Shown: positions 1 through 48,024, counted from the whole stretch's first letter. The stretch is 63,900 nucleotides of DNA, filler included, from Stramenopiles sp. TOSAG23-3 (GCA_900128585.1; 4 parts of 4 records of this genome joined end to end with filler, not necessarily neighbours in it); one strand, 5' to 3'. Translations and numbers: made by a program. Notes: generated by a model from the letters alone, not told the origin.

Positions 1-79
1 AATCGTTGGCTCGATCCATGGCAACCCGCAGGCGCAAAAAGAAAAGGAAAAAAGCAAAAAAGAGGCTCGTAATTGCCAA
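1..79. repeat. 79-bp exact inverted repeat, left copy (partner 15850-15928)
   Basis: Bases 1-79 are the exact reverse complement of 15850-15928, i.e. both ends of the first contig. Confidence 0.95.
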
Positions 80-6000: not shown

Positions 6001-9000
6001 GAAAACAAGCGATTGTAAACAATGCACTGGGAAACCTAGTCGAAGAAGTGTTTTCAACAACAAAACTTCACTTTGACCAGGGCACTACGGCGAACCTGGT
6101 ACGCGCAAAAATCGACGAAGGCCTGGTAACGTACCGAAAAGGGCTGCGCCAGCCCGCTTCTGAAAAGAGGTTGGTGGTGTATGTTGATGATCTTTCAGCC
6201 CCAGAAATTTTAGGGGTCAAAGACGGAAGCATTCGCCCTTCTCACGAAGCAATGCGAAACTTGCTGGACAAGTCTAGTTGGTTTAGCATGTACCGAGGGG
6301 TATTCGAGGAGACTAAGATTAAAAATGTTGGTTTTGTTGCAACCGAACGCCAGCCATTATCGGATTCAAAATTAAGTTTGCGCGTTGTGCGCCATTTCAA
6401 CGTGGTCTCTACGGACCCCTGGGATAAAACGAAGATGACGCATGTGTTGTCGGCCATGACGACTAAATTTATGCAACGCACAAACCACAGGTTAAGCAAC
6501 CTTGCAGAGACCGTGATGAATTCGGCCATAGACTTGATTGAGCGGTGCAGAAATGAATTTCGACCGTCGCCGCAGCACCCACATTACCAATACTTTGGCC
6601 TTTACGACGCCGCAAGGGTTACCTATGGGGTATTTCGCGTGGCCTCGCGCTCCTTGAAGTACTCTGGCCCTCCCCAAAAAGCCCGACTGTTTGTGCACGA
6701 GGCTCAACGCGTTATTGAAGACCGCATGGTGTCAATGGGTGATGTAAAGAAATTTCGACAGGTGATAGTGCAGAGCACCGTCGGCATTTTTGAAAACTCT
6801 TTGGATTTCGGAAATGACCGAGAGGAAACGATCGTAAACGAAGACTTTTGGCCGCACTGGTTCTACTCTGCTTTGGAGTTGGACCGCAAACCCTGCCTGT
6901 TTACCGACCTTGTAGGCAGCGACGGTTACATTGAGATGACCCAGCTGGCAAAAATTCAAACTGCCATAAACGTGGCATGCGAATTGATGAACGAAAAATC
7001 AGAGGAAGAAGGGTTGCCCCCAGTTGAAATAATCCCTTTCAAATTTACAGTCGTCCATCTGTTTCGGGTGTGCCGCATTCTGAAAGACACTCGTGATCAC
7101 CTCTGCCTTACCGGTCAGGCGAGCACGGGGAAACATACGGTTTTAAAATTAGCTGCCGAAATGTTAAAACTGCAGTATGTGCCCATTGACCTCGGGAAAA
7201 TTTTACGAGACGGGAAGAAGGGGTGGAGAGAGACCATCAAGCCGGTTTTACGGAAAGCGGCAAGTGGAGAGCGCCTTCTGCTGACGGTCAACTTGAATTC
7301 GACAGCGGACTACGTGTTCCGTGATTTGTACAATATCCTCAAACCGGGAACAGTTTTGGAGATGTTTGACGGTGCAGAGCTGGAGGAGATAGACCTACGC
7401 TTTCGTGACGATGCTATCGACGCAAACACAATGATAACATCCGAGTTGACCACTGAACATGTGCTACAATATTTTCAGGACACCTGTTGCGCCAACATAA
7501 AGTTTGCTATGTGCACCAGTGGGACGAGACATATGTTTGATATGTGGAACATGTACCCCACGCTGCCGCAACTCTTTGTCACAGACTGCTTTTATTCCTG
7601 GGACGAAACGACCCTAAGGTATGCAGCAGAGGAAATCTTCAAAGGATCTTCGTCTGCGCGCCTAAGCAAAAATACGATAAGCGCTGTCGCCGATTGTGCA
7701 ATTGGCATCCACAAGTGCGTCGAGGTCGCTGCAGCGCGCAACGACCTTGCAATGTCACAGAGAGATTTCTTAGGAATGTGTTATTTGTTTCGAGAATTTA
7801 CGGATAACTTTTTCGATGAAAGCGTCGAGACGAAAAGTAAGTACGAATTTGCCCTTGCGAAATTAAGCGAAACGGAAGATGAAGTTGCATCCATGAAAGA
7901 AGAAATCGCAGGCATGAAGCCTCTGCTGGACCGTAAAATTGAAAAGGCAGACGCCGTCATGAAAACCGTCACTGCGGAGAGGTCTGTTGTCACGGGTCAT
8001 GTCCGTGCTGTGCGAGACGACGAAGCCGAAATTGAAAGGCAAAACAAAGATGCGACTGCAAAGCGAGAGTTTTGTAAAGAGAAACTTAGGGAGGCTATGC
8101 CGACGCTAAATTTGGCAATTGACGCAATTAGGCAATTGAGCAAGAAAGATTTGGAAGAGGTGAAATCGCTGAGAAATCCTCCCGCGAAGGTAAAGACTGT
8201 GATGGAGGCCGTTTGTATTATGCTTGGTCTACCGCCGCGAAAGGTAAAGGACCCTCAGGACAAAACGAAGAAAATCGACGACTACTGGGCAAGCTCGCAG
8301 GCTATCCTGGGGAATGCAAACGCATTAAAGCAATCGTTAGAGCAGTACCACAACCACCACGATATTCGGGACAATGTAATTCAAAAGATAGAGATAGAGT
8401 ACCTGACCTTGGAACACTTTAATCCCGAAGAAGCCCGAAAAGCCAGCATTGCGTGCGAAGGACTGTGCAAGTGGGTTATTGGAATCGTTAAATACTATCG
8501 CGTTGCACAGTCCATAAAACCGGTGAAGGCGGCGCTGAAGGAAGCCGAAGAAGACGTAAAGTTTTCCTTGCAGGTGCTTGAGCAGAAGCGGAAGAATGTA
8601 AAAATGGCGGAGAAACGCTTGAAACAGTTGGAAAAACAATTGGACAGGGCATCGACTGAGAAGCAAAAATTGCAGGCGGAGGTAAAGGAGCTTTCGGGGA
8701 AAATTAAAAATTCCACGGACATGATCATCCGCCTAGAAACAGAACGGCGCCGATGGGAAGACGCGTTGATGGACTTGAACGTCGGGAACGAAACCATTCC
8801 TGCGGACAGTTTGCTTTCAGCTGCTTACGTTGCATACTGTGGACCATTTAGTGCGGAAGCGAGGACGGGCTTGTTTCAAACGTGGGGAGAGCTAACAACG
8901 GCTCACGAATTGGTGTCCACCATGTCCAATGATGGGGACGACGAGGATTCAGGCGACGAGAAGAACCCTGCCGACCTCAAGTTCGCATTCGATCCGAAGC

Positions 9001-12000
9001 GCATCTTAATTGCAGAGGAAAACATATTGGAGTGGATGTCCACAGGGCTTCCGAGCGACAACGGCTGCATTGGCAGTGCAACCATTCTGGAAAACAATGT
9101 TAAGAAGTGGCAATGGCCTTTGGTAGTCGACCCAGACGGCTACGCAATGTACTGGATGAAGAATTACTACGAAAGCGACGTCGGCCCTCCAATCATAGCA
9201 AACGTGTCAAACGACGCAAAGTTGCGTGAATCGTTGCGCAAAGCTGTCACGGAAGGGCGCACCATCATTGTTGACCTCGGGACAGGCACCGCCATCGGTG
9301 AGAAGTTTATTCCCTTCCTCGCATTGGCTGGAAACTTGGAACAGCCTACTCCATGCGAAGTTGTCGTGTTTGAAGGCGAATCTCTCAACCTTGACTTGGG
9401 CTTTAAATTAGTGTTTGTGACAAAAACACCGTTGCCGCAGGGAACTTCATGCTCTCAACCAAGTGTTCTTTTCTCCCTGAGTGAAGATGCACTGACAGAA
9501 GAAATAATGTGGATTATGTCTTACGACCTGTTTCCCGAACAAAGTGCACTCAGGCAGCAGGCGATCATTGACAACACCAGGCTGCACGTGCGAAAGAAGC
9601 AGCTGCAAAATGAGGTCTTGGAGTTATTAAACGAGAGCGAAGGGAGCATGATGGAGGATGAGCGGCTCATCAACGTGCTGAACGATTCCAGGCGCAAGAC
9701 GATGGAATGTATTGGCCAAATAAAGACCACCAATAACAAACGTCTGCAAAATACGGAATGCATCGAAGTGTTCCGGCCTTTGGCAGAGCGGGCGTTTACC
9801 CTCTACAAAGTCCTGTCGCGGATGAATTTGGTTAAAAAGGCGTATAGTTACTCGCTCGTTTGGTTTATATGTATACTGTTGAATGTAATCAGGGACGACC
9901 CGGACCTTGTCGTCAAAGAAGAAGAAAACACGGAGGGAGGGGGGGGCGACCAGAGTCGTCCAAACAGCAAGAGTCAGCGAAAAAAACCGAGGAAAGAGAA
10001 AACGGTCGAAAGGATCGCGTCCGCCGTCAGTCTGATGGTGCACGTAAATACGATAACAAAAGCCGACTACTTGGCAAAAAAGGAAAAGAAAACTGGAGAG
10101 GCTGAGGAAGAGCCCGAGGGCAACGCTGGGGAGCCTGCTGACAGCGCGGGAGGGGAGGAATCGGCGAAACCAACCGTTTATCAGCTGCAAGTGTTGAAAG
10201 TGAAAGAAGCGATAGAGATGCTGACCAGTAGGGTAGTTAAAAAAGCCGGTTCAGGAGTATTTTTGGAAGACCATGTTTCGTTCTTGGCCGGGATCTCTAT
10301 CGAGCTGCTTGACTTCTCGATGGAACAGCGAAAGCTCCTGTCCACAGAAGTCTCCTCTTTAAGTCAGGACGCGCTCTGCAGAATGATTGATGAGGGAAAG
10401 GATATTCAAATGCCGTCTTTCTTTCCGTACAGCTTGGAGGAGCGCGAAAAGCTACCCGTGCCCCTCACTGTCCAAACTTGGATGACCGACGAGCAATGGG
10501 GGCGTATCCTGTACGTAGCAAGAGAGCTTCCGGGTGTCTTCAGCTCTCTCCCATCAAACATAGAAAAAAGCGCGCCCGTTTACGCAAAAATGTGGCACGT
10601 TATTTTCATGTCCTCGACTCCGTTGGAGGAAGTGTTCCCGCCTCCATGGGACAAGACGCTGACGTTGAAGGACAAGGTCGTGCTGCTTCGCGCCATATGC
10701 CCTCAGTCATTCGATGGCAGTGTTTTGCCATCCCTGATAGCGGTGACTTTGGGAGACGACACGCTCGACAACATTTTCCAAAGTCTGCAGGACGTGCATG
10801 ATATGTCTTCAATGACGCTTCCAGCCTCGCCGATATTGATGACGTTGGAATCCGGTGGGTCAAAGGACCCATTGCAGTCTATTGAAGGGTTTTACGCCCG
10901 CTGGCAAAGGTTTTACGGTGGTCCCAACACGGCGACTCGAATTTTTCTGGGGGACGGTCACAAAAGCATTGTGCGCGCTACAGAGGAGTTGAAGCGCGCG
11001 GTATCGAACGGGAATTGGGTCATTCTGTGTAATTGTCATTTAGAGCCCCAGTGGCTTCCGAAACTGAGCGCGTTTGTTCACGAAGTGCTGCACAAAAAAT
11101 CGTCGGATGTGAACCCTAGATTTCGTTTGTGGATGATATCGGTTGTTGACGAGAACTTTCCGTCGTATTTGGTGCAACAGTCGATTCGAGTGGCCATCAG
11201 TGAGATACACAGCATTCGCCACACCTCTCGGGGTATATTTCAAGAGTTACAAGCCCCAGATTTTGACGTAGATATTATGTACAGCGTCTCTTCAAACGAT
11301 GCCGATGGGCCTGTGCTTCAGGATATCTTCCCCGTGGGGATGGACAAAAAATTTGATGACGCTATTCGTAGTGCATATGCTGAGCCCGCTTCGTCCAAAC
11401 GAAAAGAATACTTCAGGCGCTTGACTTACGGGCTGGCACTGTTCCACGGGGTGATGGAGCAGAGAGCATCCTACGGGGTCTTGGGGTGGGAAGATGCGTT
11501 CATTGAGGCCGATTTAGAACTGGCAAAAGAAGTACTTGCCATCCACATGCGGCGATGGGAAGTCTTGTGTCACACTCGTGAAATCAAAGTGATTGCGGAA
11601 ACGGATGGCCCAGCGCCCCCTATCCCACCGGCGCATTTGGTCGACCCCGACTACAACTTTTATGAATGGTGCGCCGGCGTCATTGGAGACGTCCTCTATG
11701 GCAACAGTTTGACGGATCCCAACGATTACCAGAGTGTTCGCTTGATTTTAAAATCCATCGTGTGCGAGGACGCATTGCGGGAACGATCTTTGCCTTACAA
11801 GTGGGGCATGCGCGGAGAGTCTGGAGAACCGTTTGGAATCGGAACCATGGTGGAAGCAATCGTGCCTGCCGGCAAGAGAAAGAAAAAGCGCAAACGTAAA
11901 AACGAAGACCCAATGGCTGGTACTATTGCTAGTCTTGATCGTTATAAGCAGCATATCAACCGATTGCCAATAAGCACAAGCGGGGAAACGGTGGGACTGG

Positions 12001-13076
12001 GGCCAAATGCATCCCAAGAGTATGCCCGCTTGTCTCTGAAAAATACTGTGCAGAACTTAAGCGCCATTTATTCCAAACCGGAGACCAGCGGCACCAGGAA
12101 CAACCTATTCTCCGGTGTTTTGGTAGTTCAGGCGTTGGACGAACTTCCCGCACGTTTAAAGGAGCAGCTTGCGATCGTCGAACTGGAAAGTATCGAGGCC
12201 GTGATTGTTAACCGCGAGGTATTGCTTCTTAACAAGCTGCTCGCGCATTTCAAAAATGCTGTCCATGACTTGGATTCTGCCGTGACGGGTGCAACCTCTT
12301 TCACGAGGGCCCACCTGTCCGCGTTGCAGACTTTGGAGAAGGGTCAAGTTCCTCCGGACTGGTTGGGGGACTTTACCTACCGCTTTACTCAGTCTGGAAG
12401 GCGCAGGGTTCCTCTCCGGTACTGGCTGTCGCATTTAAAATGCAGAGTGGACTATTTCAACAGCATACTCGGCGGAAACACATCGTTCCTGAAAGATATT
12501 CGTTTGGGGTACTTGTTGAGGCCTGTTCACGCGTGCCAAGATTTGTTGGGGGGCGAGATTGGGAATGAATATAAACACTGGGGGACCACGGGCCAGAAGC
12601 GTGCGCCAGACGATGCGTACGTTTTCACGGGCATGTACATGGATGGTGCACAGTACAGGCACTTGAACGAAAAAGAGTACGAAGCAGGATCTTCTGTATT
12701 TTTCACGGAAATCAAGGAAAGCGCTATGTACTCGCACGTCGCTTCCCTGTACGTCACGAAAAACAACGCATTGGTTTCAGAGGACGTCAGCAGTGCACAG
12801 CCCCAAAGCGATCAGTTTACGTACCAGTGCCCTGTGTATATTACGTCGGACCGCAATCGCCTGAATGGGGACGATGGGTCCAACAAGCTATTTTCCATTC
12901 CCTTGCCTTGCTGCTCTCCGGAGGCCAAAGCGCTGCTGGAAGCTGGACAGGCCAAGGGCACAGAGGAGTCAAAGAAGACAGCGTTGGCGAACTATCTGGG
13001 CGCCGATGATCTGAAAAGGCGCAACGTCGCGATTTCTTGCTACGTACACCCGGACGAGGCGTTCGTCATGATTTAG
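6..13076 (+). CDS. Divergent dynein heavy chain (axonemal-like), 5'-truncated at the contig start
   Basis: 4356-codon uninterrupted ORF with no ATG start. Tail/linker motifs LPIIKELRNPAMRARHW and LEYYG..RVVVTPLTERC. P-loop-like motifs GEDGWGKT, GPAGSGKST, GELSSGKQ and GQASTGKH. Stalk/MTBD LSKKDLEEVKSLRNPPAKVKTVMEAVCIML. AAA6 region GNWVILCNCHL...FRLWM. C-terminal YQCPVY. Confidence 0.93.
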   Translation: MARSMATRRRKKKRKKAKKRLVIANKGRKVKSKRRSMKWNLASSKIRSKVKAGVPVVGGTVGVQLSTCVRHVSEVENIMKFQGFVARSTDVLTDAAAYLVNKMVEPLFKIKLTVSTDGKGLCQFTPPLIEFEKGIKRVVSHLATIGVDIEPVNIDILQPTTNPSPRDERGHFFSAVRSAVTPDEAAVLHRSRTLMALLRGNMAYLGSLVLAMQTFKEFFVLDMASYVDKFRGTIKESTRTAVLKAQLEKVDFLQGEADRIKGTLVDTLWLHAFEIDCKDFKNHLHGNARAMKNLLLRRIDSDMREHMRVLSKRFGTYYDSLAIWPKNIEEFDNLKSSLDAFQRMHKESEVAVSSLTEQLEGLENRFFGVTENDYDMYWHARGWPYRLQHAKDNVLASMRKFQKRFEEELRHQKRVFMEEIDRLGLDFRGIHEKGVAQWREAEAVCDEISLLEDRLDGAVEEAEMIRSREQILGWEHDVNFGNAIEMREGMKPFNELWSKVAMWERQMPEWMDGPFLSINSESATEFVRQCWRDMYRLQRVFDQHDKYTEPLKVADRLKGALEGFKQYLPIIKELRNPAMRARHWMDLSIELNTTIRVDNSLTLRRLLADNMLEHQEAIKDISKVASRELKIEDALADIEATWNISGVCPATPEQVSTPFYFRFVLLDEIGSYGISNISEVTAILDEQSIQVQELESSLYAKPFNENILRLKEMQASMQTILEDWSFVQECYVSLYPQYLSGLLAKIPGVPAEYQKIDEQWRNTMDVLRTKDVKFEPPAMRFIELVEIGEDVSESKKIGESIMDGMQKYFLHMRSVCPRLYLLSDKQCFQMLALSKNPSFFHPLMRVLFPGTKRFELATRVKIRQEMEEVTDSESDTDFSGEEYTGSEESDSSEEDQENIMFREELRTVNIDLSKFGENFSASIVSCSGMYNEQIKLFEEVDLCDRRTKKIFPLEKWVANLETVSKRSLLEKIYDQMIALDEIIADMDATEEEHYETALKHLETWLLQVPTQVAAVSRSIMFFHVVERALRGGKTAELVMVRNSITQEIRCTSDMLRNFADNAASKEEALRAYHAASTYILTLLGCKDSVQQFIDKGTQSLGAFEVQAQFRHVLLETNPRSPKKLNVNMGILAKHKYTSGKRGNSAGGGSGIKKKLKPLPMMEKGRRIECRMLGFRRHFSLEYYGIFSRVVVTPLTERCQRAMMTSMRYCVCAMSVGEDGWGKTEIAKDMATLLGTLFLTFKLSNATTMENLRSILASVCANAAWCSIDNFCYVQKGVLALLAEAIGPLQRAALAGASSVNIEGVSSKLKFGWGVHFTSSPQPLRDIGIPPSLRTLLRITKFQAPARSVVLNSLLVANGHSNAQKLAEKVTLFLTRAQLEFPGRKECFGLRHVRLALDECSTRSITHRDSVKHSKDVEFFHALLRKVNVQFDIFDQTRCCEIMDTVMPGLGFGEDDTLQPLDYSIIKNQMENKYLVCGDNHLRTFQGMYECISAGPANMIVVGPAGSGKSTYINFLAQAMSEFERVFVANLVESENGESKKLKEKLRKRPTAEREGTGLSSSSEEEDEEESESDSACDEDNLQYGNVLRGTVNLQYLQPSSVSFDEFFGYFDSEYANKWVAGIFSTMSARFSANKVGFAGLKSVTKYSRKWIVIDSCVCGQTWMEVISACLDESRELLLANGDRVPFTDSMSLVFETDNISNVSPAFLSRCGVVSTKNDVVKDAASNEPLLWEHLITTWIGETQVRILTLRPYVNILQGLFASLLKPCVQFAMKNAASCPENSNHRLQLDQTWVVSSFLRLFECYLKDFKASTSEEVKRELRAAGDNKRVSAAVIEQLEKPKVLSMHADLIISNLQNVFLESLVWTLNPFFSREGQKRLDSFIRELISKFPKKSPEHVQSMAEDWREVKAQSFMKEIPALDIRQEVGLISDHVYNSDTQSWKAFVSNEYAHPIPDHISTVNIFQRGYIIPTTDYARGVASVTKLLLGGNNVVVVGELSSGKQAIVNNALGNLVEEVFSTTKLHFDQGTTANLVRAKIDEGLVTYRKGLRQPASEKRLVVYVDDLSAPEILGVKDGSIRPSHEAMRNLLDKSSWFSMYRGVFEETKIKNVGFVATERQPLSDSKLSLRVVRHFNVVSTDPWDKTKMTHVLSAMTTKFMQRTNHRLSNLAETVMNSAIDLIERCRNEFRPSPQHPHYQYFGLYDAARVTYGVFRVASRSLKYSGPPQKARLFVHEAQRVIEDRMVSMGDVKKFRQVIVQSTVGIFENSLDFGNDREETIVNEDFWPHWFYSALELDRKPCLFTDLVGSDGYIEMTQLAKIQTAINVACELMNEKSEEEGLPPVEIIPFKFTVVHLFRVCRILKDTRDHLCLTGQASTGKHTVLKLAAEMLKLQYVPIDLGKILRDGKKGWRETIKPVLRKAASGERLLLTVNLNSTADYVFRDLYNILKPGTVLEMFDGAELEEIDLRFRDDAIDANTMITSELTTEHVLQYFQDTCCANIKFAMCTSGTRHMFDMWNMYPTLPQLFVTDCFYSWDETTLRYAAEEIFKGSSSARLSKNTISAVADCAIGIHKCVEVAAARNDLAMSQRDFLGMCYLFREFTDNFFDESVETKSKYEFALAKLSETEDEVASMKEEIAGMKPLLDRKIEKADAVMKTVTAERSVVTGHVRAVRDDEAEIERQNKDATAKREFCKEKLREAMPTLNLAIDAIRQLSKKDLEEVKSLRNPPAKVKTVMEAVCIMLGLPPRKVKDPQDKTKKIDDYWASSQAILGNANALKQSLEQYHNHHDIRDNVIQKIEIEYLTLEHFNPEEARKASIACEGLCKWVIGIVKYYRVAQSIKPVKAALKEAEEDVKFSLQVLEQKRKNVKMAEKRLKQLEKQLDRASTEKQKLQAEVKELSGKIKNSTDMIIRLETERRRWEDALMDLNVGNETIPADSLLSAAYVAYCGPFSAEARTGLFQTWGELTTAHELVSTMSNDGDDEDSGDEKNPADLKFAFDPKRILIAEENILEWMSTGLPSDNGCIGSATILENNVKKWQWPLVVDPDGYAMYWMKNYYESDVGPPIIANVSNDAKLRESLRKAVTEGRTIIVDLGTGTAIGEKFIPFLALAGNLEQPTPCEVVVFEGESLNLDLGFKLVFVTKTPLPQGTSCSQPSVLFSLSEDALTEEIMWIMSYDLFPEQSALRQQAIIDNTRLHVRKKQLQNEVLELLNESEGSMMEDERLINVLNDSRRKTMECIGQIKTTNNKRLQNTECIEVFRPLAERAFTLYKVLSRMNLVKKAYSYSLVWFICILLNVIRDDPDLVVKEEENTEGGGGDQSRPNSKSQRKKPRKEKTVERIASAVSLMVHVNTITKADYLAKKEKKTGEAEEEPEGNAGEPADSAGGEESAKPTVYQLQVLKVKEAIEMLTSRVVKKAGSGVFLEDHVSFLAGISIELLDFSMEQRKLLSTEVSSLSQDALCRMIDEGKDIQMPSFFPYSLEEREKLPVPLTVQTWMTDEQWGRILYVARELPGVFSSLPSNIEKSAPVYAKMWHVIFMSSTPLEEVFPPPWDKTLTLKDKVVLLRAICPQSFDGSVLPSLIAVTLGDDTLDNIFQSLQDVHDMSSMTLPASPILMTLESGGSKDPLQSIEGFYARWQRFYGGPNTATRIFLGDGHKSIVRATEELKRAVSNGNWVILCNCHLEPQWLPKLSAFVHEVLHKKSSDVNPRFRLWMISVVDENFPSYLVQQSIRVAISEIHSIRHTSRGIFQELQAPDFDVDIMYSVSSNDADGPVLQDIFPVGMDKKFDDAIRSAYAEPASSKRKEYFRRLTYGLALFHGVMEQRASYGVLGWEDAFIEADLELAKEVLAIHMRRWEVLCHTREIKVIAETDGPAPPIPPAHLVDPDYNFYEWCAGVIGDVLYGNSLTDPNDYQSVRLILKSIVCEDALRERSLPYKWGMRGESGEPFGIGTMVEAIVPAGKRKKKRKRKNEDPMAGTIASLDRYKQHINRLPISTSGETVGLGPNASQEYARLSLKNTVQNLSAIYSKPETSGTRNNLFSGVLVVQALDELPARLKEQLAIVELESIEAVIVNREVLLLNKLLAHFKNAVHDLDSAVTGATSFTRAHLSALQTLEKGQVPPDWLGDFTYRFTQSGRRRVPLRYWLSHLKCRVDYFNSILGGNTSFLKDIRLGYLLRPVHACQDLLGGEIGNEYKHWGTTGQKRAPDDAYVFTGMYMDGAQYRHLNEKEYEAGSSVFFTEIKESAMYSHVASLYVTKNNALVSEDVSSAQPQSDQFTYQCPVYITSDRNRLNGDDGSNKLFSIPLPCCSPEAKALLEAGQAKGTEESKKTALANYLGADDLKRRNVAISCYVHPDEAFVMI

Positions 13077-15928: not shown

Positions 15929-16028
15929 NNNNNNNNNNNNNNNNNNNNNNNNNNNNNNNNNNNNNNNNNNNNTTAATTAATTAANNNNNNNNNNNNNNNN
16001 NNNNNNNNNNNNNNNNNNNNNNNNNNNN
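15929..16028. other. Artificial contig-joining linker
   Basis: N44-TTAATTAATTAA-N44, exactly 100 nt, with stops in all six frames; recurs identically three times. Confidence 0.97.
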
Positions 16029-22069: not shown

Positions 22070-24104
22070 TTAATTGTCAGTGCTATCCCCAACGTCGTAG
22101 CAGGTTTGCCCGTCTTCGTTCAAGGCTTCGTCACCGGCGCCTTTCCCCAGCAAATAATCGAACAATTCCAAATGCTCGTACATGAAACAAAAATGCAACG
22201 CAGTGTTCCCAGCACGATTTTTTGCGTTTAAATCAGCACCGTATCGAAGACACAATTTCACGATACGCTTTTTGCCGTTCTGGCATGCAATCAACAGCAA
22301 TGTGTTGTCATGCGTGTCCCTGGAATCTACTGGCAGTCCGTTTTTAAGGGCGCTCAGCACGTCTGCGTATCTCCCGTGACGTGCGCGACTGAATACTGTC
22401 GCTGGGTCTGGTGCAGTCTGCCCGTTCATCGTTCCCCCAACAACATCACTACTGGGCGGCGCGTTGTTGTGACCTTCTCCCCGTTTGGTTGCAACGGCAG
22501 AAGAAATTTCTTCCCTGCTGTAGGGTGAGTGAAAAACTCGCGGCAGCGATGATGGGCGGACTGGCGATGCTCCTGCTGCTTCCATGTCCCCGGAAAGACC
22601 CCGCTTGGTTTCGGAGGCCAACACCACTGTGTGACCACCACTGCAAGAGATATCCATGACGTACCAGTCTTGCAAACCGTCCGCGTGGCAAGGCAAAGAG
22701 ACCGCCGCACCACCATCTAAATAAAAGTCTTTCTCGCCCCCACGTGCTCCTGGTGACACTTCAACGCCAAGCGACCCCCCTTCGCTACTCCCCCACGTAT
22801 AAACGGCCCCATCTTCTAATAATGCCATGCTCACGTCGCCCCCTGCAGCGACTGCAACGGTATTGCACCCCCTCAGCGATTCGACTGCCCGTGGCGAAAC
22901 GTAATTGTGCGGCGTCCCATGTCCGCATTGCCCGTCCGCGTTTTTGCCAAAGGTATACACATCGCCGCGGGTATCAAGGGCAACGGTGTGAAAATCACCG
23001 CAGGCAACTTGGTGCACAATCAGCGGGGTCCTCCTTGGGCCGTGCTTCACTACACGCGGCTGGTACACCACAGACTTGGAGACGCCCTGGTCCCAATTGT
23101 TTTCCCGTATAGCGCTTGGGCCATGGCCAAGACGTCCGTATTTTCCACCACCAAAAGTAAGCAAGTAACCTTGCACTGACAGAATCGCGGAGTGCTGCCG
23201 ACCACACGCTACTTGTGCGCATGCAAAGTCTTCGCGCAGCTTTATTGATTTTGGTTTATAGCGCACTTGCTTCGTTTCGGTCGGTGCAGATCCTAGCTGG
23301 CCATTCTTCCTCTGTCGCAGCAACGGTATGGCTGCCGCCACAAGCGACCGTATAAATGGTGTACTTCGACAACCCCCGAACTTCTCGCGGTCTCATGTAA
23401 TGGGTCTCGTCCGAACCATGGCCAAGAGCGCCGTCAAATCCACAACCCCATGTATGCAGTCTTCCCTTGTCGGTAATCAGCGCAGCATGTTTACGACCGC
23501 AAGAAATATAGACTGCCCGCTGCTTCACCCCAACGCCTCCTTTCAGAACGGAGTCGGCACTCCAGACCAGGGTAGGCTCCATGAGTATTTCTTCGAAGAG
23601 CATTCCCCACTGGTACACGTCCCCACGGTCGGAGAGTGCCATGGAACCGTACGTGCTGGATTTTACAGAGTTGACGTCATTCACGCCCCCTTCTGCTTTC
23701 TCGGTAAATTCGGGGCCATATTTTTTCTCCAGTGCGGCAAACAGGGCCTGCTCCCGGCCAATGAACTTGGTCAGCAGTTCCTCTACTTCTTCTAATTTAT
23801 CTTGGTTGTACCGTTTGTAAAAAGCGACCAAGCGGTTTCTCCAGTGCTCAAATATAGACTGCCGTTGCAAACTTTGCTCGTCCCCCGCTTTTGCAGCAGC
23901 GCTTCCAGCCCTTCGCACATTTACGTGCACTGGCGATGACGTATACTCGCCTTTGAAGCCCGGATTCCCTAACTGATAATAATACGCCAACCCAAACGTT
24001 AAAATTTTCGTCTTCAATTTTTCACCACTCTCCTCCCCCGCCGAACTCGAGCCGCTTGTGCCCTGCCGATGGGGCGACGAGGAGTACGAAGCAATGGACG
24101 CCAT
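22070..24104 (-). CDS. RCC1-repeat plus C-terminal ankyrin-repeat protein, split by a frameshifting lesion at about 23306
   Basis: RCC1 repeats in both ORFs (ISCGRKHAALIT..GRLHTWG..FDGALGHG; VACGDFHTVALD..GDVYTFGKNADGQCGHG). Ankyrin repeats DNTLLLIACQNG and GNTALHFC. Confidence 0.82.
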
Positions 24105-24538: not shown

Positions 24539-25471
24539 TTAGTAAATAGACACCATCATGCCGTAGTACGTAGGATGCTCGTCTGCCAAAAGTTCTGGTT
24601 TGAACCGTGTAAAATCTTCCATAAGCAGCCCATGAAGCATAACTAATGAGGGAAAGCCGCACGATAAAGCGTAAATTTCGATATTTGCGGCGTCAACCAA
24701 CAATGCGTTCGCGTGCTGTTTTGGGTTGCTCCCCCAAAGCCCGACATTTCGGTCAAACGGCGCTGCATATTTGGAAAAACCATACGGACCGCTTGCCAGG
24801 TGGGTATGTGCCAAGTCAGACGACGCGATGAAGACCACCCGTTTCGTTTCTAGAGAATCAAAATGTTTAAACAGAACTCGTCCTATATCTAGCAGCTCGG
24901 GCACCATCTCTTTAGAATGATTGTAGCGTCGTAACGGGTGGCTCAAAACTACAATTTTGGCACGCTTCAAAGTAGAGTTGCTCAAAAAGGAGAGGGGTAT
25001 AATTTCACCCCAACGAAAGGCCTGTGGTTCCGAGTCCGCAAATGACAGCAAGGCCGATACATTTCGTTTCATCTTGCGGAGAGAAGACACCACGCTCTTT
25101 GACTCGACAGGATCCATGGAAGCAGAGCGATAAATCTTGTACGTCGGAAAAGATTTGTTGTGCAAGTCTTGCCCTAACTCGGCATACCCTTTTCCTTTTG
25201 TATTTTCATAAATTGCAAAATTATTCGACAGCGCTACTCCGTGTGGAGTAGTTAAAAATATAATGTCTGGCTCTAGGCTATCAACGTACTTTCCTGCCCT
25301 TAGGGCAGCTTTGTGAACCTTCAGACTACCGTTTCTATCATGTACTAAGGTAGGGTCGTATGCAAAGTCACCGTGCGGTATTACAGCTGCACCAACAATT
25401 ATCGACTGGACAGAACTGAACTTTGAAAATACTAGAGCTAGCAATAGAAAATGGAAAGCACTGTTCCCCAT
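24539..25471 (-). CDS. LigB/Memo-like (class III extradiol dioxygenase fold) protein with a putative signal peptide
   Basis: AAVIPHG, PDIIFLTTPHG, WGEIIPLSFL, FIASSDLAH and terminal YYGMMV. Hydrophobic N-terminus after the ATG at 25471. Confidence 0.75.
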   Translation of the reverse strand: MGNSAFHFLLLALVFSKFSSVQSIIVGAAVIPHGDFAYDPTLVHDRNGSLKVHKAALRAGKYVDSLEPDIIFLTTPHGVALSNNFAIYENTKGKGYAELGQDLHNKSFPTYKIYRSASMDPVESKSVVSSLRKMKRNVSALLSFADSEPQAFRWGEIIPLSFLSNSTLKRAKIVVLSHPLRRYNHSKEMVPELLDIGRVLFKHFDSLETKRVVFIASSDLAHTHLASGPYGFSKYAAPFDRNVGLWGSNPKQHANALLVDAANIEIYALSCGFPSLVMLHGLLMEDFTRFKPELLADEHPTYYGMMVSIY

Positions 25472-26113
25472 AGCATGAAGTAATACTCCCTGTCTATTAC
25501 AGGAACCAATCGTCGTCCGCCCCTTCAATCCTGCGTTTCCTGTTATAGTATTTCCGGCAAAACCTATAAACTTTGGAAAATGAAAATATTAGTTCCTGTT
25601 TCTTTTCCACTAATTCTTCCACCAAAAAACTGTTAGTTGATTTTTTCTATAATAATAATAATTTTTTTATAATAAATTATTAGACTATTAATTTATTATA
25701 ATAATTTAAAAAAAAATACAATAATATTTATTTTACCGTACCAAACTCTACCAAGGGAAAGACAGGGACAACGCTACGATCAGTATATTAAAAAAAAATT
25801 GAACAATTTCTATTATTATTAGACTAATCGTCTAGTCTACGAGGATAGCTACAGTACTTGTTTTTTTAGAGCAAACTTCATTGTATTATTATTTATTAGT
25901 CGTTCTATGATTTATCTTCTATTATTTATTAGCTAATAAATAATAAGAGAAAGATCCAAAGACCAAAGAACGAAGAAGTCTTCAAAAATAAAAAATAAAA
26001 AAAAAAAGGGTTACGCCCTACACTCGTTCATATCTTAAGAAATACTACAAGTACACATTGCCTATATAACGGAAATAATCGTTCATATAAAAAATCAACA
26101 ATTTTTACAAAAA

Positions 26114-26230
26114 NNNNNNNNNNNNNNNNNNNNNNNNNNNNNNNNNNNNNNNNNNNNNNNNNNNNNNNNNNNNNNNNNNNNNNNNNNNNNNNNNNNNNNN
26201 NNNNNNNNNNNNNNNNNNNNNNNNNNNNNN
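26114..26230. other. Intra-scaffold assembly gap
   Basis: 117 N with no TTAATTAATTAA linker. Confidence 0.95.
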
Positions 26231-26595
26231 CAACTCGAAAAAGTTAAACACAAAGTTGCACAAGGTAAATAGCAGGCAAAATAACAAAAAAAGGAAGAAA
26301 AATGACATTGGAGTTTTTTTTTTTTTTTTCACTGTCGGATTTAAATGACTTCTACTCTTAATAATATTAATATTTAATTTTTTAATAATAATTTTATTTA
26401 TTATAATTTCTTTTTATTTTGTTGTTGTCTGGGACTTGATTTTTGTGCAGCGCGGTCTCTTCTTCTTCCCAGTGTTGTTGTTCTTCGAGATCCATCAAAA
26501 TATTTAAATTAAATAGAATATAAAACACACAAGGCCTTAAAACTAAAAATGTACATTTTTTACTAAAGTCGTGTGTCTATCTTTTTTTTTATTAA

Positions 26596-27120
26596 TTAAC
26601 ATCTAGTACACCGCTTTCTACAACGCCAATTGCCGCATTTAGACAAGCATGCATCTCTTCTTTTCATGCAGGCTGGGTAATTTCTTCTGTATAATGGACT
26701 GTCCCGTAACAAACAGCCGCGGACACTCCAGCAAGCTTTCTTTTTTCTTCGCAGCCTCCTTGATAACCCGACCCCGAGGTGGCTATATTGTCTTAGTCTC
26801 CTGCTTTGCTCCATCTGATCGAAAACTTCCAACGTGTCGTCTTCCGTTTCTTCAAGTTCGTCAAATATCGAATATCGGTTCCCAGGCACAGGAAGTACAG
26901 TATCCAAAGTATCTTCCGTTTCTTCAAGTTCGTCCATGCTTTCCAGGCAGACGCCTAATTTCCATTTCCGGCAATTGGGAACGGTCGTAGCGATGCAGAT
27001 CCCATTTCGCCATCTATAGCAAGTGCCGAAATAGCGGCCGAGGCGGCGGGCGTCAACGCCCGATCGAGATAAACCAACAGTGGCAACAACAAGTGCCAAA
27101 AGGATGAAGCAGTTCTTCAT
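26596..27120 (-). CDS. Secreted Cys-rich cationic multi-peptide precursor (hypothetical)
   Basis: Signal peptide MKNCFILLALVVATVG, three RRL motifs, duplicated acidic DELEETED spacer, 4-Cys and 8-Cys basic modules. Confidence 0.8.
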   Translation of the reverse strand: MKNCFILLALVVATVGLSRSGVDARRLGRYFGTCYRWRNGICIATTVPNCRKWKLGVCLESMDELEETEDTLDTVLPVPGNRYSIFDELEETEDDTLEVFDQMEQSRRLRQYSHLGVGLSRRLRRKKKACWSVRGCLLRDSPLYRRNYPACMKRRDACLSKCGNWRCRKRCTRC

Positions 27121-28223
27121 TGTCCGTGGTGTTTTTGTTTGTCGCGGTTTCGTTTGAAATGTATTTTGCGAATTTGTAAGTATTTAACTGTGACTCTTAG
27201 CCCATTTCTGTTTCGCTTTCATATCAACAAATTGCTTTGATGGTTCTGATGCAGAAGGGATTACAAAAGTCTCATCAACTAATAACAGAGGCGATCTTCT
27301 TTCTTTTCTTCAGCAGGTCCTCTTCTATTATATACCCAGGTACTACTTCCTTCTCATTTACTTCTTGGTACGTACAAAAGTACGGAAAAGGCACGAAATA
27401 ATTAGTCTTATACTGACTCGAAAATTATATGCTGTGTGGTGCTAATATATATTATACGTGTAATCAACACTTCTCATTTTATAAGTAGAGGAGTACATAC
27501 GAGGAGTACATAGTCTAAATATTGGGCCTTTATATTACCTCTCCCCCCTTTTTTGTCCATGACCTGTTTTTGCAAACTAGACTAAATTAACAGTTACTTA
27601 TTACATTAGTCTATAATAGACTACAGTATGACACTTCTTCTTTTCTTTAATTAACTATCAATTAAACATATTTTTACATAGTAATAATAGTGGGTTGATT
27701 GATTGATTACGAATATATTTAAATAAATACCACCAGTGGAACCAGGTGGTACATTTAAGGAGGAGTATTATAATAAAAGAAGTAGAAAAAAAGAAGAAAG
27801 AAAGAAGCGACTAAACAACAACTACGTAGTCTATTATGAAAACATCTTCTTCTTTTTTTTTTCTTCTTCTACTACTAAAAAAATTAATTATTATATTTAT
27901 TTTATTATTATTATTACTACTGGTATTATTCTATTTTTTTTTCAAAAACAAACTGCCGGCCTGTGGTGGACTGGGATATGGAATGAATACCGTTCCGTAA
28001 TGCTTTCTTTCTTTTTTGTGTAAAAGCCTGTACAACTAAAGAAAGAGAAGAGAGAGAGACTATTTAATTAAGTGTTTTTATTTCCAGGCGTTGGTAGACT
28101 ATACAAATATAATTTCATATTTGAATATAAATTGCGGGAGGTGTGTGTTTACATATACCCCGTGAATACTTGTCTCTCCCTTCTCTAGCGACGAAAAATA
28201 TTCAAATTGTTGTTAGGTGGAAA

Positions 28224-29597
28224 ATGAGTGCTTCAAGTAGGCAATCGTTCTCTTCGTTGACGAACGAGGACGATGACGAGGAGAATGGGCTTTCTGTTCA
28301 ACTGACCGACCTGAAAGGTAACAGTCAACAAAACCGTCCTGTCACCAACGACGATGAGCTTATGCTGTCCCCCGGAAAAGCAAAACGCTTTCCGTCCGTC
28401 TTGCGAGACGGATGGTGCAGCTACTTGCAAGTCGTCGCGAGGGAAATATTGCTTGGGCACTGGATGAACATTTTGATGCTCTTGACCCCACTTGCGTTTA
28501 TCTCAAAGTGGTCGAATTGGAGCGAAGGCGTCACGTTTGTCGCGTCCCTCCTTGCCCTTTGCCCGTTTGCGGAGCGGATTTCGTTTGTCACCGAAGATCT
28601 GGCAAAATATACGAACGATACCTTAGGTGGTCTGCTCAATGCCACCTTTGGGAATGTGACGGAAGTGATCGTCTGTATCTTTGCTTTGAAGCGCGGGCTT
28701 GTCCGCGTCGTTCAGGTGTCCATGCTGGGCTCTATTCTGTCGAACCTGTTGCTTGTCCTTGGCTGCGCGTTTCTAGTTGGCGGGGCCAAGTACCCCGAAC
28801 AGAAATTCAATGCCACGGCGGCCATCACAAACAGTGGCATGCTGCTCTTAAGCCTGTTCGCTCTCAGCTTGCCGACAATCTTGAGCTCGACGCACACCGG
28901 CGCCGGCAGCTTCTCTTCGTCCGTAATTGTTGCAGCCAACAATACGGCGGGTATTGTGACTACGGAGGGGGGGGATGCCCCCATAGGGCTGTCGCGCTTT
29001 GTGTCCTTCCTTATGCTCTTCATGTACTGCTGCTACTTGTTCTTTCAGATGTTCACGCACCAAGAGATGTTTGAAGGCCAAGAAGACGATGACGAAGAGC
29101 CGCCTGTTCTCGGCTTTTGGGGTGGTATTACCTTGCTTGGTGTTTTGACCTTGTTTATCTCCACCCTCTCTGACCTTATCGTTGATGCGATCGATGGCGC
29201 AGCGTCAGATTTGAAAATTCCTTACCTGTTCATTGGAACCATTTTAATCCCAATCGTTGGCAACGCTGCCGAGCACGCTGCTGCGATCATATTTGCGTAC
29301 CGCAACAAAATGGAGATAGCCATGGGCATTGCCGTAGGGAGCGCGGTTCAAATCAGTTTGTTTGTGATTCCCTTTTGTGTCGTCCTCGGGTGGATGATGG
29401 ACGTTCCGATGGACTTGGACTTTCACCCTATGGAAACCGTCACTGTCATTTTGACCGTGATCACCGTGGCTATTATGATCCAAGACGGGAAGAGCACTTG
29501 GCTGAAAGGTGTCCTTTTGATCGTTATTTATATCTGCATTGGGGCTGCTTTTTGGGCTCATTCTGATCCACGAAGTGAAAAAGAGAGAGGGTTGTGA
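28224..29597 (+). CDS. CAX: Vacuolar Ca2+/H+ exchanger (CaCA/CAX family)
   Basis: Alpha repeats GLLNATFGNVTE and PIVGNAAEH, acidic loop EGQEDDDEE, about 11 hydrophobic segments. ATG at 28224. Confidence 0.95.
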   Translation: MSASSRQSFSSLTNEDDDEENGLSVQLTDLKGNSQQNRPVTNDDELMLSPGKAKRFPSVLRDGWCSYLQVVAREILLGHWMNILMLLTPLAFISKWSNWSEGVTFVASLLALCPFAERISFVTEDLAKYTNDTLGGLLNATFGNVTEVIVCIFALKRGLVRVVQVSMLGSILSNLLLVLGCAFLVGGAKYPEQKFNATAAITNSGMLLLSLFALSLPTILSSTHTGAGSFSSSVIVAANNTAGIVTTEGGDAPIGLSRFVSFLMLFMYCCYLFFQMFTHQEMFEGQEDDDEEPPVLGFWGGITLLGVLTLFISTLSDLIVDAIDGAASDLKIPYLFIGTILIPIVGNAAEHAAAIIFAYRNKMEIAMGIAVGSAVQISLFVIPFCVVLGWMMDVPMDLDFHPMETVTVILTVITVAIMIQDGKSTWLKGVLLIVIYICIGAAFWAHSDPRSEKERGL

Positions 29598-31935: not shown

Positions 31936-32035
31936 NNNNNNNNNNNNNNNNNNNNNNNNNNNNNNNNNNNNNNNNNNNNTTAATTAATTAANNNNNNNNN
32001 NNNNNNNNNNNNNNNNNNNNNNNNNNNNNNNNNNN
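31936..32035. other. Artificial contig-joining linker
   Basis: N44-TTAATTAATTAA-N44. Confidence 0.97.
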
Positions 32036-38731: not shown

Positions 38732-41218
38732 ATGATAAACTTTCAGCATGTTTTGCGTCTCATTATCCTTGCCTGCTCATTTCTGGGGCGAACGGGGTCA
38801 CCGTTGCTGTTTGGTAGTGCTGGTGGGAATCACGGTATTTCTTACTGGGGTATCAATGTTCACTTTACACGAACAGGGGCTACGGACAAAGAGATCTCGC
38901 AAGTTGCGCAAGCGTATACAATTGCCCGAATGGATTTAAGCTGGGCCTCCATAGAACTGACAATAGGAAAATATGACTTTTCAAGCCATGATGAACTCTT
39001 TGGTCGGCTGAAAGCAAAAGGGGTTCATGCGTATTTTATTCTGGACTATGGCAATCAGAAACTTTACCCCAACTGCATGGACGCTCACCGCCCGAACACC
39101 ACGGCCACAAAACACTGCATCAATGCATTCGTGAAATTTGCAATCGAGGCAATGAAGCATTTCTCTGCGTTGGACCAGAGTGTGGTCTTTGAGTTATGGA
39201 ATGAACCAAACACGGTGTTCTGGGAAGATTTAAAATTCGGAAACGTGACCGAATACGCAAAACTAGCGGTTGCCATAGATGCGGCACGAATAGCATCTGG
39301 GATACGCAGCAACACCACTCTTGTTGGCCCCGCTGTGGCCGGGTTTGGAACAAACGTTACATGGCAGTTTTTGGAGGCGTGCGGACAGCTAGGTTGCTTC
39401 AGAGCATTTGACGCTGTTTCTATGCATGCGTACAGAAACAGCGAGGAAGGTCCAGAGAGCATTCTACCGGACCTCAAGAAGCTAAAGGGTATTTTGCACA
39501 ATGACAGCGTCAAACTAATTTCAGGGGAATGGGGGTGGTCTACGTGCAATCCTTCGCAGCCCCCGCCTAACTCATCGTTTCATTTCAATTGCGGCGTTTC
39601 GAATTCTGTGGCCGACGAACTCGGGGCAGCGAGAAACCTTGCTCGTCAGTGGCTTACGAATACGTATGCAGGCGTGGTTGTCTCTATTTACTACGACTTT
39701 ATTGACGATTGTCCCAACCCTTTTGATCGAGAGTGTCGCTTCGGAACCGTTCGTGCCGACCGTACGCCAAAGCCAAGTTACACCGCTGCGTGGACTCTAC
39801 AACAATATTTAGGCGGGAAACGATTTCAGAAACGCATCGGCGCAGCAGACGAGAACTCTTACGCCCTTGCGTTCGAGGGAAACAGGCTTGCAGTTTGGAA
39901 CGTGCCCGTTGCCCGGCAGAGTAAAAACGGCACATGTCCTGCTCATGATAGTCTTCCAACAGTCCGTGTCAACTGTGGGCACGATGGCACTACCAAGGAG
40001 GAGTGCGAAGACGCTGGGTGTTGTTTTTCGTTCCCACCCCCAACGTTTGGTCCCCAATGTTTTTTGCCGCCACTGAACTCAACCAAAGAAATAACATTCC
40101 CTGTTGGTGTCGGAATTCAGTGTTGGGACCAAGTGACGATTGCAAATGCAACGCTTGAAAGCAGAGTGTGTTCCAACGAGAAAGGCTGGCTGAGCATTAT
40201 GGCGTCCGAAAACCCAATATTGCTGATCCCAGAGCCGGCCAAAGTTTTGAAGTTCAATGAAAACGGGGTGTTTACTATTGCCCAAATTGCCGATGCGCAT
40301 TTGGGGGAGGGGGAGTCCAGCTGGGGGCCTCGGATTGACAACCACACGTACCGAGCCCTAAGGAAAGTTCTTCGACTGGAAGCCCCCCTTTCCCTTGCGG
40401 TGCTGTCTGGTGACATGCTTACTGGCCTAAACATTGACAAAAATGCGACTTCTTATTGGGACCAGCTTGTCTCCGTTTTGGACGAACAGGGGTTGCCACA
40501 CACAGCAATATTAGGCAACCATGATGCCGAGCCCTTTGCTGGCACTAAACAAAACCAGTCCGCCCCCGGCGCAAAAACTAACCGGTCCGAGCTGATGGAA
40601 CACGACACCGCGTTGCCGCTCTCCTTCTCCAAACTCGGCCCGGGACATTTACGCCCCGCCGTATCTATCTACGTTGTTGATGTGTTTTCGAAAGACGGCC
40701 AGGAACCGTTGCTGCAATTGTACCATTTGGACAGTGGTGGGGGAGGTATGATCGAGGAAGTTTTTATTGAGCAGATTTCGTGGTTTGAAGAAAAAGTTGA
40801 ATCCCAACGCAATAAATTCAATGCCAAAGTTCCAGCTTTGGTCTTTGTACATATCCCAATGGCAGAGTTTCAAAGTGCACTGAATGAAAAAAAGTCCTGC
40901 TTTGGCGATGCCGAGGATAGTGTTACCCCAACAGTAAAAAACAACGGTCTCTTCGAGGCCCTTGATGCCACCGAAGAAGTTTTGGCAGTGTTCGTGGGGC
41001 ATGATCATTGCAACGATTTTTGTTGCCAGTTTGGAAAACGGTCGATTGACTTGTGTTTCGGCAGGCATAGTGGGTACGGTGGATACCAGTGCAACGGCTA
41101 CGAGGAAGGGGTCCGGATAATCACCATTCAGAACGACCAAAAAGCAGGGGTGTTGAGTGTTTCCACTCATATAAGGCTGAATAATGGAACTATTATTCAC
41201 ACAGGTTCTCTTGTATAA
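38732..41218 (+). CDS. Secreted fusion of a clan GH-A glycoside hydrolase (GH5/GH39-like), a trefoil (P-type) domain and a DCR2/PAP-like metallophosphoesterase
   Basis: Signal peptide. FELWNEPN (acid/base) and ISGEWGWS (nucleophile). Trefoil RVNCGHDGTTKEECEDAGCCF...PQCF. Metallophosphoesterase motifs ADAHLGE, SGDML, GNHD, FVHIP, GHDHCND and GRHSGYGGY. Confidence 0.85.
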   Translation: MINFQHVLRLIILACSFLGRTGSPLLFGSAGGNHGISYWGINVHFTRTGATDKEISQVAQAYTIARMDLSWASIELTIGKYDFSSHDELFGRLKAKGVHAYFILDYGNQKLYPNCMDAHRPNTTATKHCINAFVKFAIEAMKHFSALDQSVVFELWNEPNTVFWEDLKFGNVTEYAKLAVAIDAARIASGIRSNTTLVGPAVAGFGTNVTWQFLEACGQLGCFRAFDAVSMHAYRNSEEGPESILPDLKKLKGILHNDSVKLISGEWGWSTCNPSQPPPNSSFHFNCGVSNSVADELGAARNLARQWLTNTYAGVVVSIYYDFIDDCPNPFDRECRFGTVRADRTPKPSYTAAWTLQQYLGGKRFQKRIGAADENSYALAFEGNRLAVWNVPVARQSKNGTCPAHDSLPTVRVNCGHDGTTKEECEDAGCCFSFPPPTFGPQCFLPPLNSTKEITFPVGVGIQCWDQVTIANATLESRVCSNEKGWLSIMASENPILLIPEPAKVLKFNENGVFTIAQIADAHLGEGESSWGPRIDNHTYRALRKVLRLEAPLSLAVLSGDMLTGLNIDKNATSYWDQLVSVLDEQGLPHTAILGNHDAEPFAGTKQNQSAPGAKTNRSELMEHDTALPLSFSKLGPGHLRPAVSIYVVDVFSKDGQEPLLQLYHLDSGGGGMIEEVFIEQISWFEEKVESQRNKFNAKVPALVFVHIPMAEFQSALNEKKSCFGDAEDSVTPTVKNNGLFEALDATEEVLAVFVGHDHCNDFCCQFGKRSIDLCFGRHSGYGGYQCNGYEEGVRIITIQNDQKAGVLSVSTHIRLNNGTIIHTGSLV

Positions 41219-43907: not shown

Positions 43908-44653
43908 GAATTTGCTGTGCAGGAGGAGACAAGCACCTGTCAGCTACCGCGTACAGAAAAAGGAAATTTCAATGCCGTGGATGGGTGCGGTTTGTGTTCG
44001 ATCTTACGATATATTGATGCGGGGCGGTTAAAGAAACGATTGATCCTTTTCACTAACAGTTAACAGTCTGTCTGGTCTTGTTCCAAATGAACCTCTGCTG
44101 AAGAAGATAGAAGAAGAAGAGGGAGGAAGAAGAAGAAGGAAGAAGAAGAGAAGAAGTGTTTGGTGTTGTTATTTGTTAATATAAAATAATCATTCCAGAC
44201 TATTTTTTAATAAGAACAGAAGCAGAAGAAAGAAGAAGAACAAAGAAAGAAGAACAGAAAGAAGAACAGAACTAATCCTTCTTCCTTCACTGTGTCTATA
44301 TATATTATACAATACCATAGAAATACCATAGATATAAAACATATTTTCTATTCTATTATACAATACAAGTATAATTAATATACCTATGAAATACATATGG
44401 GTAACGGACATCTTAATAACATAAGAATAATAGGAGGAGTGGGTTTATCGCAGGCAGAGAGCACCGCTCGTATATTTTGGCTTTTGGATCTATGTTCTAT
44501 ATACATGTTCGTGATTAGAAAGTTTAACAAGGGTTTGTGGTTACCAAGACATGTATGTTAAGATATGAAAGGAAATATTCTGTGTTCGTTTGAACTATTT
44601 TGTTCGGATTGTTTGTTCTTGTTGTCTCTCTCTGCGTAGGGTATCGTGGTTCA

Positions 44654-47924: not shown

Positions 47925-48024
47925 NNNNNNNNNNNNNNNNNNNNNNNNNNNNNNNNNNNNNNNNNNNNTTAATTAATTAANNNNNNNNNNNNNNNNNNNN
48001 NNNNNNNNNNNNNNNNNNNNNNNN
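47925..48024. other. Artificial contig-joining linker
   Basis: N44-TTAATTAATTAA-N44. Confidence 0.97.

Follow-up and report, generated by a model that had tools for sequence, protein, structure and literature searches.

A transcribed, apparently orphan gene that may encode a secreted precursor of cationic, disulfide-rich peptides punctuated by RRL motifs

We found that a 174-codon open reading frame (ORF) at 26596-27120, on the minus strand of the window (the whole 63,900-nucleotide stretch of DNA that was analysed, filler included), is a real, transcribed gene, as judged by contigs assembled from RNA libraries. The best reading of its product, to which we give slightly less than even weight, is a secreted, disulfide-rich pre-pro-protein in which an acidic spacer would mask cationic modules until cleavage at RRL or other basic sites. 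The parts of this reading differ in strength: that the product is a real secreted Cys-rich protein is very probable, the balance is about even on whether it is proteolytically processed at or near RRL, and an antimicrobial or toxin-type role, suggested by charge, Arg/Trp content and cysteine framing, is doubtful.

The ORF has an ATG start, a TAA stop and no intron, and the ORF listing held no earlier in-frame start upstream of it. It sits in an AT-rich gap with a LigB-like gene (24539-25528, minus strand) on one side and a Na/Ca-exchanger gene (28143-29597, plus strand) on the other, where it forms a single GC island (GC 0.48 versus 0.26 and 0.33 in the flanks). The genes of the window are eukaryotic and closely packed; the ORFs are long, with few introns, and their products include housekeeping proteins such as a carnitine acyltransferase, an NAD synthase, a CAX-type exchanger and a THF dehydrogenase. 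The DNA comes from an uncultured marine protist; as the nearest named relatives of the neighbouring carnitine acyltransferase are oomycete proteins (36-39% identity), this is probably a heterotrophic stramenopile. Unnamed relatives of the same enzyme (50-57% identity) occur on contigs of up to 28 kb, and through them related uncultured lineages are known to be present in the protein collection that we searched.

Several other features of the window were recorded. The divergent promoter gap between the ORF and the exchanger gene holds an inverted repeat of a purine run and a pyrimidine run at 27760-27880, which would form a long hairpin (-30.5 kcal/mol, z -3.5; equalled by 2 of 200 shuffles). 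An Rfam search of 25400-28300 returned three sub-threshold miRNA-precursor rows (one AT-rich hairpin; the best reached 23.3 bits, the gathering score being 64), and a tRNA search of the window found none. Content is masked in three pairs of 44-N runs with 12 bases between members (15929-16028, 31936-32035 and 47925-48024) and in a 117-N run at 26114-26230, about 370 nt 3' of the ORF's stop. A single 4352-codon open frame with a Lys/Arg-rich start extends across the first 13 kb (18-13076, plus strand). Two adjacent minus-strand ORFs with RCC1 repeats (22070-22828 and 23256-24104), the downstream one also carrying ankyrin repeats, are probably exons of one RCC1-ankyrin gene with an intron between them. 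A leader-bearing 828-residue ORF at 38732-41218 (plus strand) combines trefoil (P-type) and calcineurin-like phosphoesterase domains, a pairing that seems unusual for a protist. Finally, a 367-residue ORF at 46216-47319 (minus strand), with a hydrophobic leader, 5.4% Cys and no Pfam family, may be a second secreted Cys-rich orphan; its sequence is unrelated to that of the ORF at 26596-27120.

Evidence for transcription came from public sequencing runs. A 1001-nt query stretch was present, in whole or in part, in 20 of the 24 listed runs (14 studies), four of the 20 being possibly the source of the DNA itself. The fraction of sampled query words found was 0.45-0.52 in the six RNA holders versus 0.68-1.00 in the DNA holders; the RNA values are those expected if only the gene part of the query, ~530-570 nt, is in RNA. 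Contigs from four RNA runs, belonging to four studies, were placed on 26240-27700. In all three poly(A)/oligo-dT libraries gap-free contigs covered the ORF together with at most 45 nt of leader (26601-27165 in X16, 26641-27144 in X19 and 26611-27119 in X20, the last as two overlapping contigs), and the same three libraries had nothing on the flanks at 26240-26582 or 27171-27700. The 5' untranslated stretch at 27121-27165 (minus strand) is reached to its end by one of these contigs (X16). In the fourth run, a total-cDNA library, short contigs also lay downstream, to 26408. Assembled contigs of this kind show presence in RNA libraries and continuity, with no intron, rather than transcript ends, level or translation, and carry-over of DNA is possible. 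Expression, whose absence had been named in the first-pass annotation as telling against its proposal, is thus seen as contigs in the poly(A) RNA libraries of three studies.

When coordinates and residues were recomputed, the ORF, its translation, the motif layout and the 23-bp repeat described in that annotation all matched. All features given below lie on the minus strand. The N-terminus (residues 1-21, 27058-27120), for which a signal peptide had been claimed, is indeed signal-peptide-like: MKN is followed by a hydrophobic core at residues 4-16 and then by LSRSG. Its best 10-residue Kyte-Doolittle mean, 3.32, is the top value among the window's ORF starts with a Pfam family or RNA support; a 73-aa ORF at 44190-44411, which has neither, scores higher (3.60). 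By the -3/-1 rule, leader cleavage could fall after G16, S18, S20 or A24. The first RRL (residues 25-27, 27040-27048) stands seven residues ahead of the first Cys of module 1 (residues 28-59, 26944-27039; net charge +6), whose four cysteines are evenly spaced (C-x7-C-x7-C-x7-C) and frame two CxxWxxGxC units, at residues 34 and 50. An acidic spacer of 46 residues follows (residues 60-105, 26806-26943; net -17), containing 18 D/E, one K/R and zero Cys. Beyond it lie a first SRRLR (residues 106-110, 26791-26805), which includes the second RRL and fits R-x-L-R, then nine uncharged residues (111-119, 26764-26790) that include the second VGL(SR) junction, and then a second SRRLR (residues 120-124, 26749-26763), whose RRL, the third of the protein, is seven residues ahead of the first Cys of module 2. 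Module 2 (residues 125-174, 26599-26748; net +15) is predicted to be mostly helical and has eight cysteines, among them the run C158-x3-C162-x4-C167-x3-C171; in full, cysteines occur at residues 4, 34, 42, 50, 58, 130, 136, 151, 158, 162, 167, 171 and 174.

This motif pattern is non-random. The RRL at residues 25, 107 and 121 are the sole R-x-L tripeptides of the protein, and among 200000 shuffles of residues 25-174, 875 held at least three RRL, a single one held at least two SRRLR, and none held two or more CxxWxxGxC. RRL-x6-C occurs ahead of both modules, the first Cys of each being followed by an aromatic residue, and VGLSR precedes both RRL-module junctions (residues 15-19 and 117-121). 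Since different codons are used in the two SRRLR copies, and likewise in the two VGLSR copies, these pairs are repeats kept at the protein level, with no recent DNA copy. Unlike them, the exact 23-nt repeat, whose copies at 26912-26934 and 26840-26862 (in reading order) each encode DELEETED and are spaced 72 nt, or 24 codons, and so in frame, is a recent DNA copy. The repeated elements are just this 8-residue acidic motif and SRRLR, with no near-identical peptide cores, and modules 1 and 2 have no detectable relation to each other (BLASTP E 0.40). The proposal that RRL punctuates the precursor is borne out in so far as three RRL are present and non-random, but not at the boundary between module 1 and the acidic spacer, where examination of the whole translation found none.

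Single-sequence AlphaFold2 (AF2) models gave a mean pLDDT of 40.7 for the whole protein, with the acidic spacer disordered and all three RRL in stretches predicted to be disordered. Module 1 was modelled as a low-confidence hairpin at residues 34-45 (strands 34-38 and 41-45, pLDDT under 50). Module 2 showed helices at 133-139, 142-161 and 165-171 within the whole protein, where blocks across 141-174 reached pLDDT 63-83, and a mean pLDDT of 63.4 when modelled alone. The suggested beta-hairpin-like and helical-hairpin-like peptides therefore have counterparts in a low-confidence hairpin and in moderately confident C-terminal helices, but no known toxin or antimicrobial fold was matched. An Atlas feature search yielded no usable match for the whole protein (TM at most 0.29) or for residues 125-174 (TM at most 0.52 over 31 residues), all rows falling under the family-naming bar, and the best VIA-align result over 48161 chains was a generic helical match (Z 3.1). 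For module 2, a PDB sequence search found none, and Foldseek against the PDB gave no row with E up to 0.001; its lone row, the nemertean neurotoxin B-IV (1vib; E 8.1, probability 0.08), was rejected, as VIA-align scored this likeness at Z under 2. For module 1, a CCCH zinc finger was considered and rejected. The PDB sequence match to Yth1 fingers had an E of just 8.3 and covered the CxxWxxGxC part alone, the CCCH ligand set is absent (no C-x5-C-x3-H), the sole His, H114, is outside both modules, and a secretory leader is present.

Sequence variation was seen at two levels. The main form of the gene carried four single-base variants, all of them amino-acid changing: K54I and L55S, which co-occur in three runs and are both loop residues of the second CxxWxxGxC unit; S141T, in one run; and R134L, in one run. 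None of the four touches a cysteine. A count of four non-synonymous versus zero synonymous changes is not different from neutral expectation (about 0.3), is too small for an inference of selection, and fits fast evolution and weak constraint equally.

A second form was represented by one X15 contig, 359 nt of which aligned as a close match to residues 14-133. At residues 26-33 of this form, seven base changes produce L27R, Y30R, F31L and T33A plus one silent change; the RRL is lost at 25-27 and re-created at 29-31, a four-residue shift that places it just ahead of the first Cys, and all four module 1 cysteines and the frame are retained. Upstream of codon 15 the X15 contig carries a differing sequence that recurs, with 29 of 30 letters identical, in an X20 contig belonging to a different study. 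Translated by hand, this alternative upstream sequence is open in the ORF frame and Asp/Glu-rich where the signal peptide sits in the main form. An alternative exon upstream of the divergence at 27079 is unlikely, as the genome has no AG acceptor there. More likely, the second form is a paralogue or longer allele in which a junction-plus-module unit comes after an acidic spacer, an arrangement that would mean a modular family, and at which the contig hints. The X20 contig with the alternative upstream sequence also passes from residue 21 straight to residue 82, so that 180 nt (26877 to 27058) are missing, and has a one-codon deletion; with GT..AC ends and just 22 letters on one side, this joint was not read as splicing and is given little weight.

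On the reading that we favour, the hydrophobic N-terminus would bring about entry into the ER, the 12 remaining cysteines (4 + 8) would form disulfides, and the 46-residue spacer (-17) would neutralise the cationic modules (+6 and +15) in transit. A secretory-pathway protease would then cut at the three RRL sites, in the stretches predicted to be disordered. This could be an R-x-L-specific enzyme (compare diatom RXL and oomycete RXLR) or a kexin/furin-type enzyme acting at RR or R-L-R-R, and the two kinds of cut are equally possible; the R-L-R-R at residues 121-124 is one that we take to fit the furin pattern, and the internal dibasic pairs of module 2 could also be cut by a kexin-type enzyme. 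Cleavage would release a ~51-residue helical, very basic peptide with four disulfides and a ~32-residue Arg/Trp-rich peptide with two, the latter perhaps retaining an acidic tail. The targets of these peptides may be membranes or further polyanionic structures, in bacteria taken as prey or met as competitors, or in other cells. Cuts after each RRL would give G28-L109 (net about -9), a 14-residue piece and R124-C174 (about +16). Since such cuts leave module 1 on an acidic tail and R124-C174 free, module 2 would be the clearest candidate for a free cationic peptide. As module 1 and the spacer have no RRL between them, cuts at RRL would not part the two, and module 1 would need a further cut to be free. 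Taken together, the leader, the cationic disulfide-rich cargo, the anionic masking segment and the basic motifs fit the general plan of a secreted pre-pro-peptide.

The missing RRL between module 1 and the spacer also suits a different explanation, that the product stays intact as a secreted or surface protein, serving in adhesion, in secretory-granule or extrusome packing or in the cell coat, and that its RRL are not cleavage sites. Such a protein would likewise show the signal-like N-terminus and alternating charge blocks that are present, and cleavage is itself a putative step. We nevertheless consider it unlikely that the protein remains whole: the RRL are its only R-x-L tripeptides, two of them at the fixed distance x6 from the first Cys of a module; the second form, having lost RRL in one place, has it again in another; and the identical SRRLR pair, encoded by different codons, brackets a short uncharged stretch in a layout typical of processing sites.

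We found no relatives of the protein outside the gene itself and its second form. Pfam returned 0 families at E up to 1, a search of 5.8 billion protein clusters at near and shorter lengths found the protein itself or nothing, phmmer over 1.84 billion representatives found it alone, and its 90% cluster has one member. In metagenome contigs, six back-translated peptide patterns produced 161 pattern matches, 0 of them confirmed, and the exact 23-nt repeat had 0 matches; viral contigs produced 14 pattern matches, again with 0 confirmed. The best other match in a tblastn of the protein on the window had an E of 0.052, with no second copy, and no paper in the literature searched mentioned any of four 8-9-letter motifs of the protein. 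The family that the first-pass annotation had looked to homologue searches to reveal thus did not emerge from protein, metagenome or viral collections, the second form, with its module 1 cysteines retained, being the nearest to it. By these searches the protein is an orphan. Although the protein collection includes uncultured lineages related to this one, no relatives turned up in it; the gene is therefore either confined to a narrow lineage or evolving too fast for recognition.

Codon usage tells against a well-established gene. None of the window's 21 reference ORFs had a codon log-odds (0.074-0.313) as low as that of this ORF (-0.044), which scarcely exceeded the value of its own frame 1 (-0.054). 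After correction for amino-acid content, its synonymous codon use ranked among the lowest 6.4% when set against 140 gene windows, and it was no better than random synonymous choice (20% of the null at least as high). These values fit a young or weakly expressed gene, and such non-gene-like codon usage keeps alive the explanation that this is a young, lineage-specific transcribed ORF of little or no function, its motifs having arisen by small internal duplications of an Arg/Cys-rich sequence. Self-matches only among the 5.8 billion clusters and 1.84 billion representatives, point variants that are non-synonymous in four of four cases and the recent 23-nt duplication are what such an ORF would show. 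It would be harder put to account for a 174-codon frame in a GC island between AT-rich flanks, an even number of cysteines split 4 + 8 behind a strong hydrophobic leader, protein-level repeats with synonymous divergence, presence in the RNA libraries of at least three studies, and a second form in which frame and cysteines are retained. We regard a functionless ORF as distinctly unlikely.

As a pre-pro-protein, the product would work like known multi-module antimicrobial or toxin precursors, yet it appears to be a member of none of them and stands as an orphan. In layout, the closest described analogue is the Ib-AMP polyprotein of Impatiens. In the available excerpts of the source, the Impatiens balsamina precursor holds basic 4-Cys peptides with acidic propeptides of 16-35 residues between them, all of the peptides being freed from one transcript by proteolysis (PMC10136942). 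The likeness lies in a signal peptide followed by small basic, Arg/Trp-containing 4-Cys peptides and acidic segments. The Ib-AMP precursor is, however, a plant protein without sequence similarity to ours, its cysteine frame is CCx8Cx3C as against C-x7-C-x7-C-x7-C here, it has six near-identical copies where ours has two unlike modules, and RRL is not among the processing signals reported there for it (PMC10136942). Module 2 invites comparison with the plant alpha-hairpinins, which the same excerpts describe as C-x3-C...C-x3-C helical hairpins from signal-peptide-led multi-module precursors (PMC10136942). C158-x3-C162 and C167-x3-C171 likewise fall in predicted helices, but here just four residues separate the C-x3-C pairs, there are four further cysteines, and no homology was found. 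As alpha-hairpinins have two antiparallel helices linked by C1-C4 and C2-C3 bridges, the motif at 158-171 makes module 2 a candidate for that arrangement at most.

The two processing precedents on which the first-pass annotation drew, the RXL cut of diatom wall proteins (PMC5525289, PMC9650480) and RXLR in oomycete effectors (PMC11754927), are both in print in the excerpts available. According to the latter source's excerpt, RXLR is cut between L and R before secretion, in disordered regions only (PMC11754927). Our protein resembles these effectors in having R-x-L-R twice (residues 107-110 and 121-124), in stretches predicted to be disordered and next to acidic residues. It differs in that its leader-proximal motif is RRLG (25-28) and not RXLR, both RRLR lie over 80 residues into the protein, RRLR comes after the acidic stretch (60-105) rather than before it, and inspection of the sequence showed no EER. 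A Pfam search at E up to 1 found no WY/LWY or other effector domain, and many effectors have no detectable domain.

Fungal Kex2-processed repeat proteins and pro-domain effectors are likewise, in the excerpts available, secreted precursors with peptide cores beside basic cleavage motifs, arranged in the repeat proteins as arrays of near-identical short cores with KR/RR sites (PMC6339444, PMC7329392, PMC8528282). The modules here, in contrast, are unlike and Cys-rich, and in each motif RR is followed by L. That the protein is the precursor of a signalling peptide or pheromone, with either the stretch between the SRRLR motifs or the helical 8-Cys module as its active part, is a more improbable reading still than the two already weighed. 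The nine uncharged residues between two identical basic motifs would be in keeping with it, as would a module 2 that is small, disulfide-rich and predicted to be helical, and ciliate pheromones provide a second analogue beside the fungal ones; the short stretch, however, is single-copy, with no array of near-identical peptides, and +15 is a charge seldom seen in receptor ligands and seen more often in membrane-active peptides. Kex2-processed secreted-peptide precursors are widespread in fungi, as the source excerpts have it (PMC6339444, PMC7329392), which lends the signalling reading some further plausibility.

In diatoms, the excerpts available describe RXL domains in silaffins, cingulins and silicanin-1 as known or proposed sites at which an N-terminal piece is removed by an unknown protease (PMC5525289, PMC9650480). 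Diatoms too are stramenopiles, and in their RXL proteins, as those excerpts present them, R-x-L comes soon after the signal peptide; here the RRL at residues 25-27 comes soon after a signal-like leader. The diatom proteins are wall or biosilica proteins without homology to ours, in which RRL instead precedes cationic Cys-rich modules and has two internal copies. That the protein is associated with a wall or biomineral, like the diatom RXL-domain proteins silaffin, cingulin or silicanin, is highly improbable: the excerpt of PMC5525289 does give an RRL within about 30 residues of the signal peptide as a typical trait of diatom biosilica proteins, but Pfam and protein searches found no sequence relation to the silaffin, cingulin, silicanin or SAP families, the protein is not enriched in Ser and Lys (10 and 9 of its 174 residues, by inspection), the named relatives of the neighbouring gene are oomycetes rather than diatoms, and there is no sign that the organism silicifies.

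We thus return to the processed, disulfide-rich precursor as the best reading and consider what it would mean. At its furthest reach, and as a long shot, the gene would belong to a family of modular polyproteins in a bacterivorous marine stramenopile, with an R-x-L cassette (VGLSR...RRL) before each cationic peptide and spacers that keep the peptides inert. Were this true, marine heterotrophic flagellates would have their first gene-encoded system of antimicrobial or prey-killing peptides, and the R-x-L cut of diatom wall proteins and oomycete RXLR effectors would be an old, general stramenopile pro-peptide route. Bacteria in the ocean are grazed mainly by small heterotrophic flagellates, and in the literature searched we found no report of an antimicrobial peptide in marine heterotrophic stramenopile flagellates, the papers on MAST and flagellates being without that term. 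Should the protein prove unprocessed or inactive, it would be one more lineage-specific secreted orphan. If the modules are released and active, they would be new 4- and 8-Cys peptide scaffolds without relatives, and would give a first handle on how flagellate grazers kill or hold their prey; the precursor would also serve as a simple substrate in the search for the R-x-L protease common to this lineage, diatoms and oomycetes.
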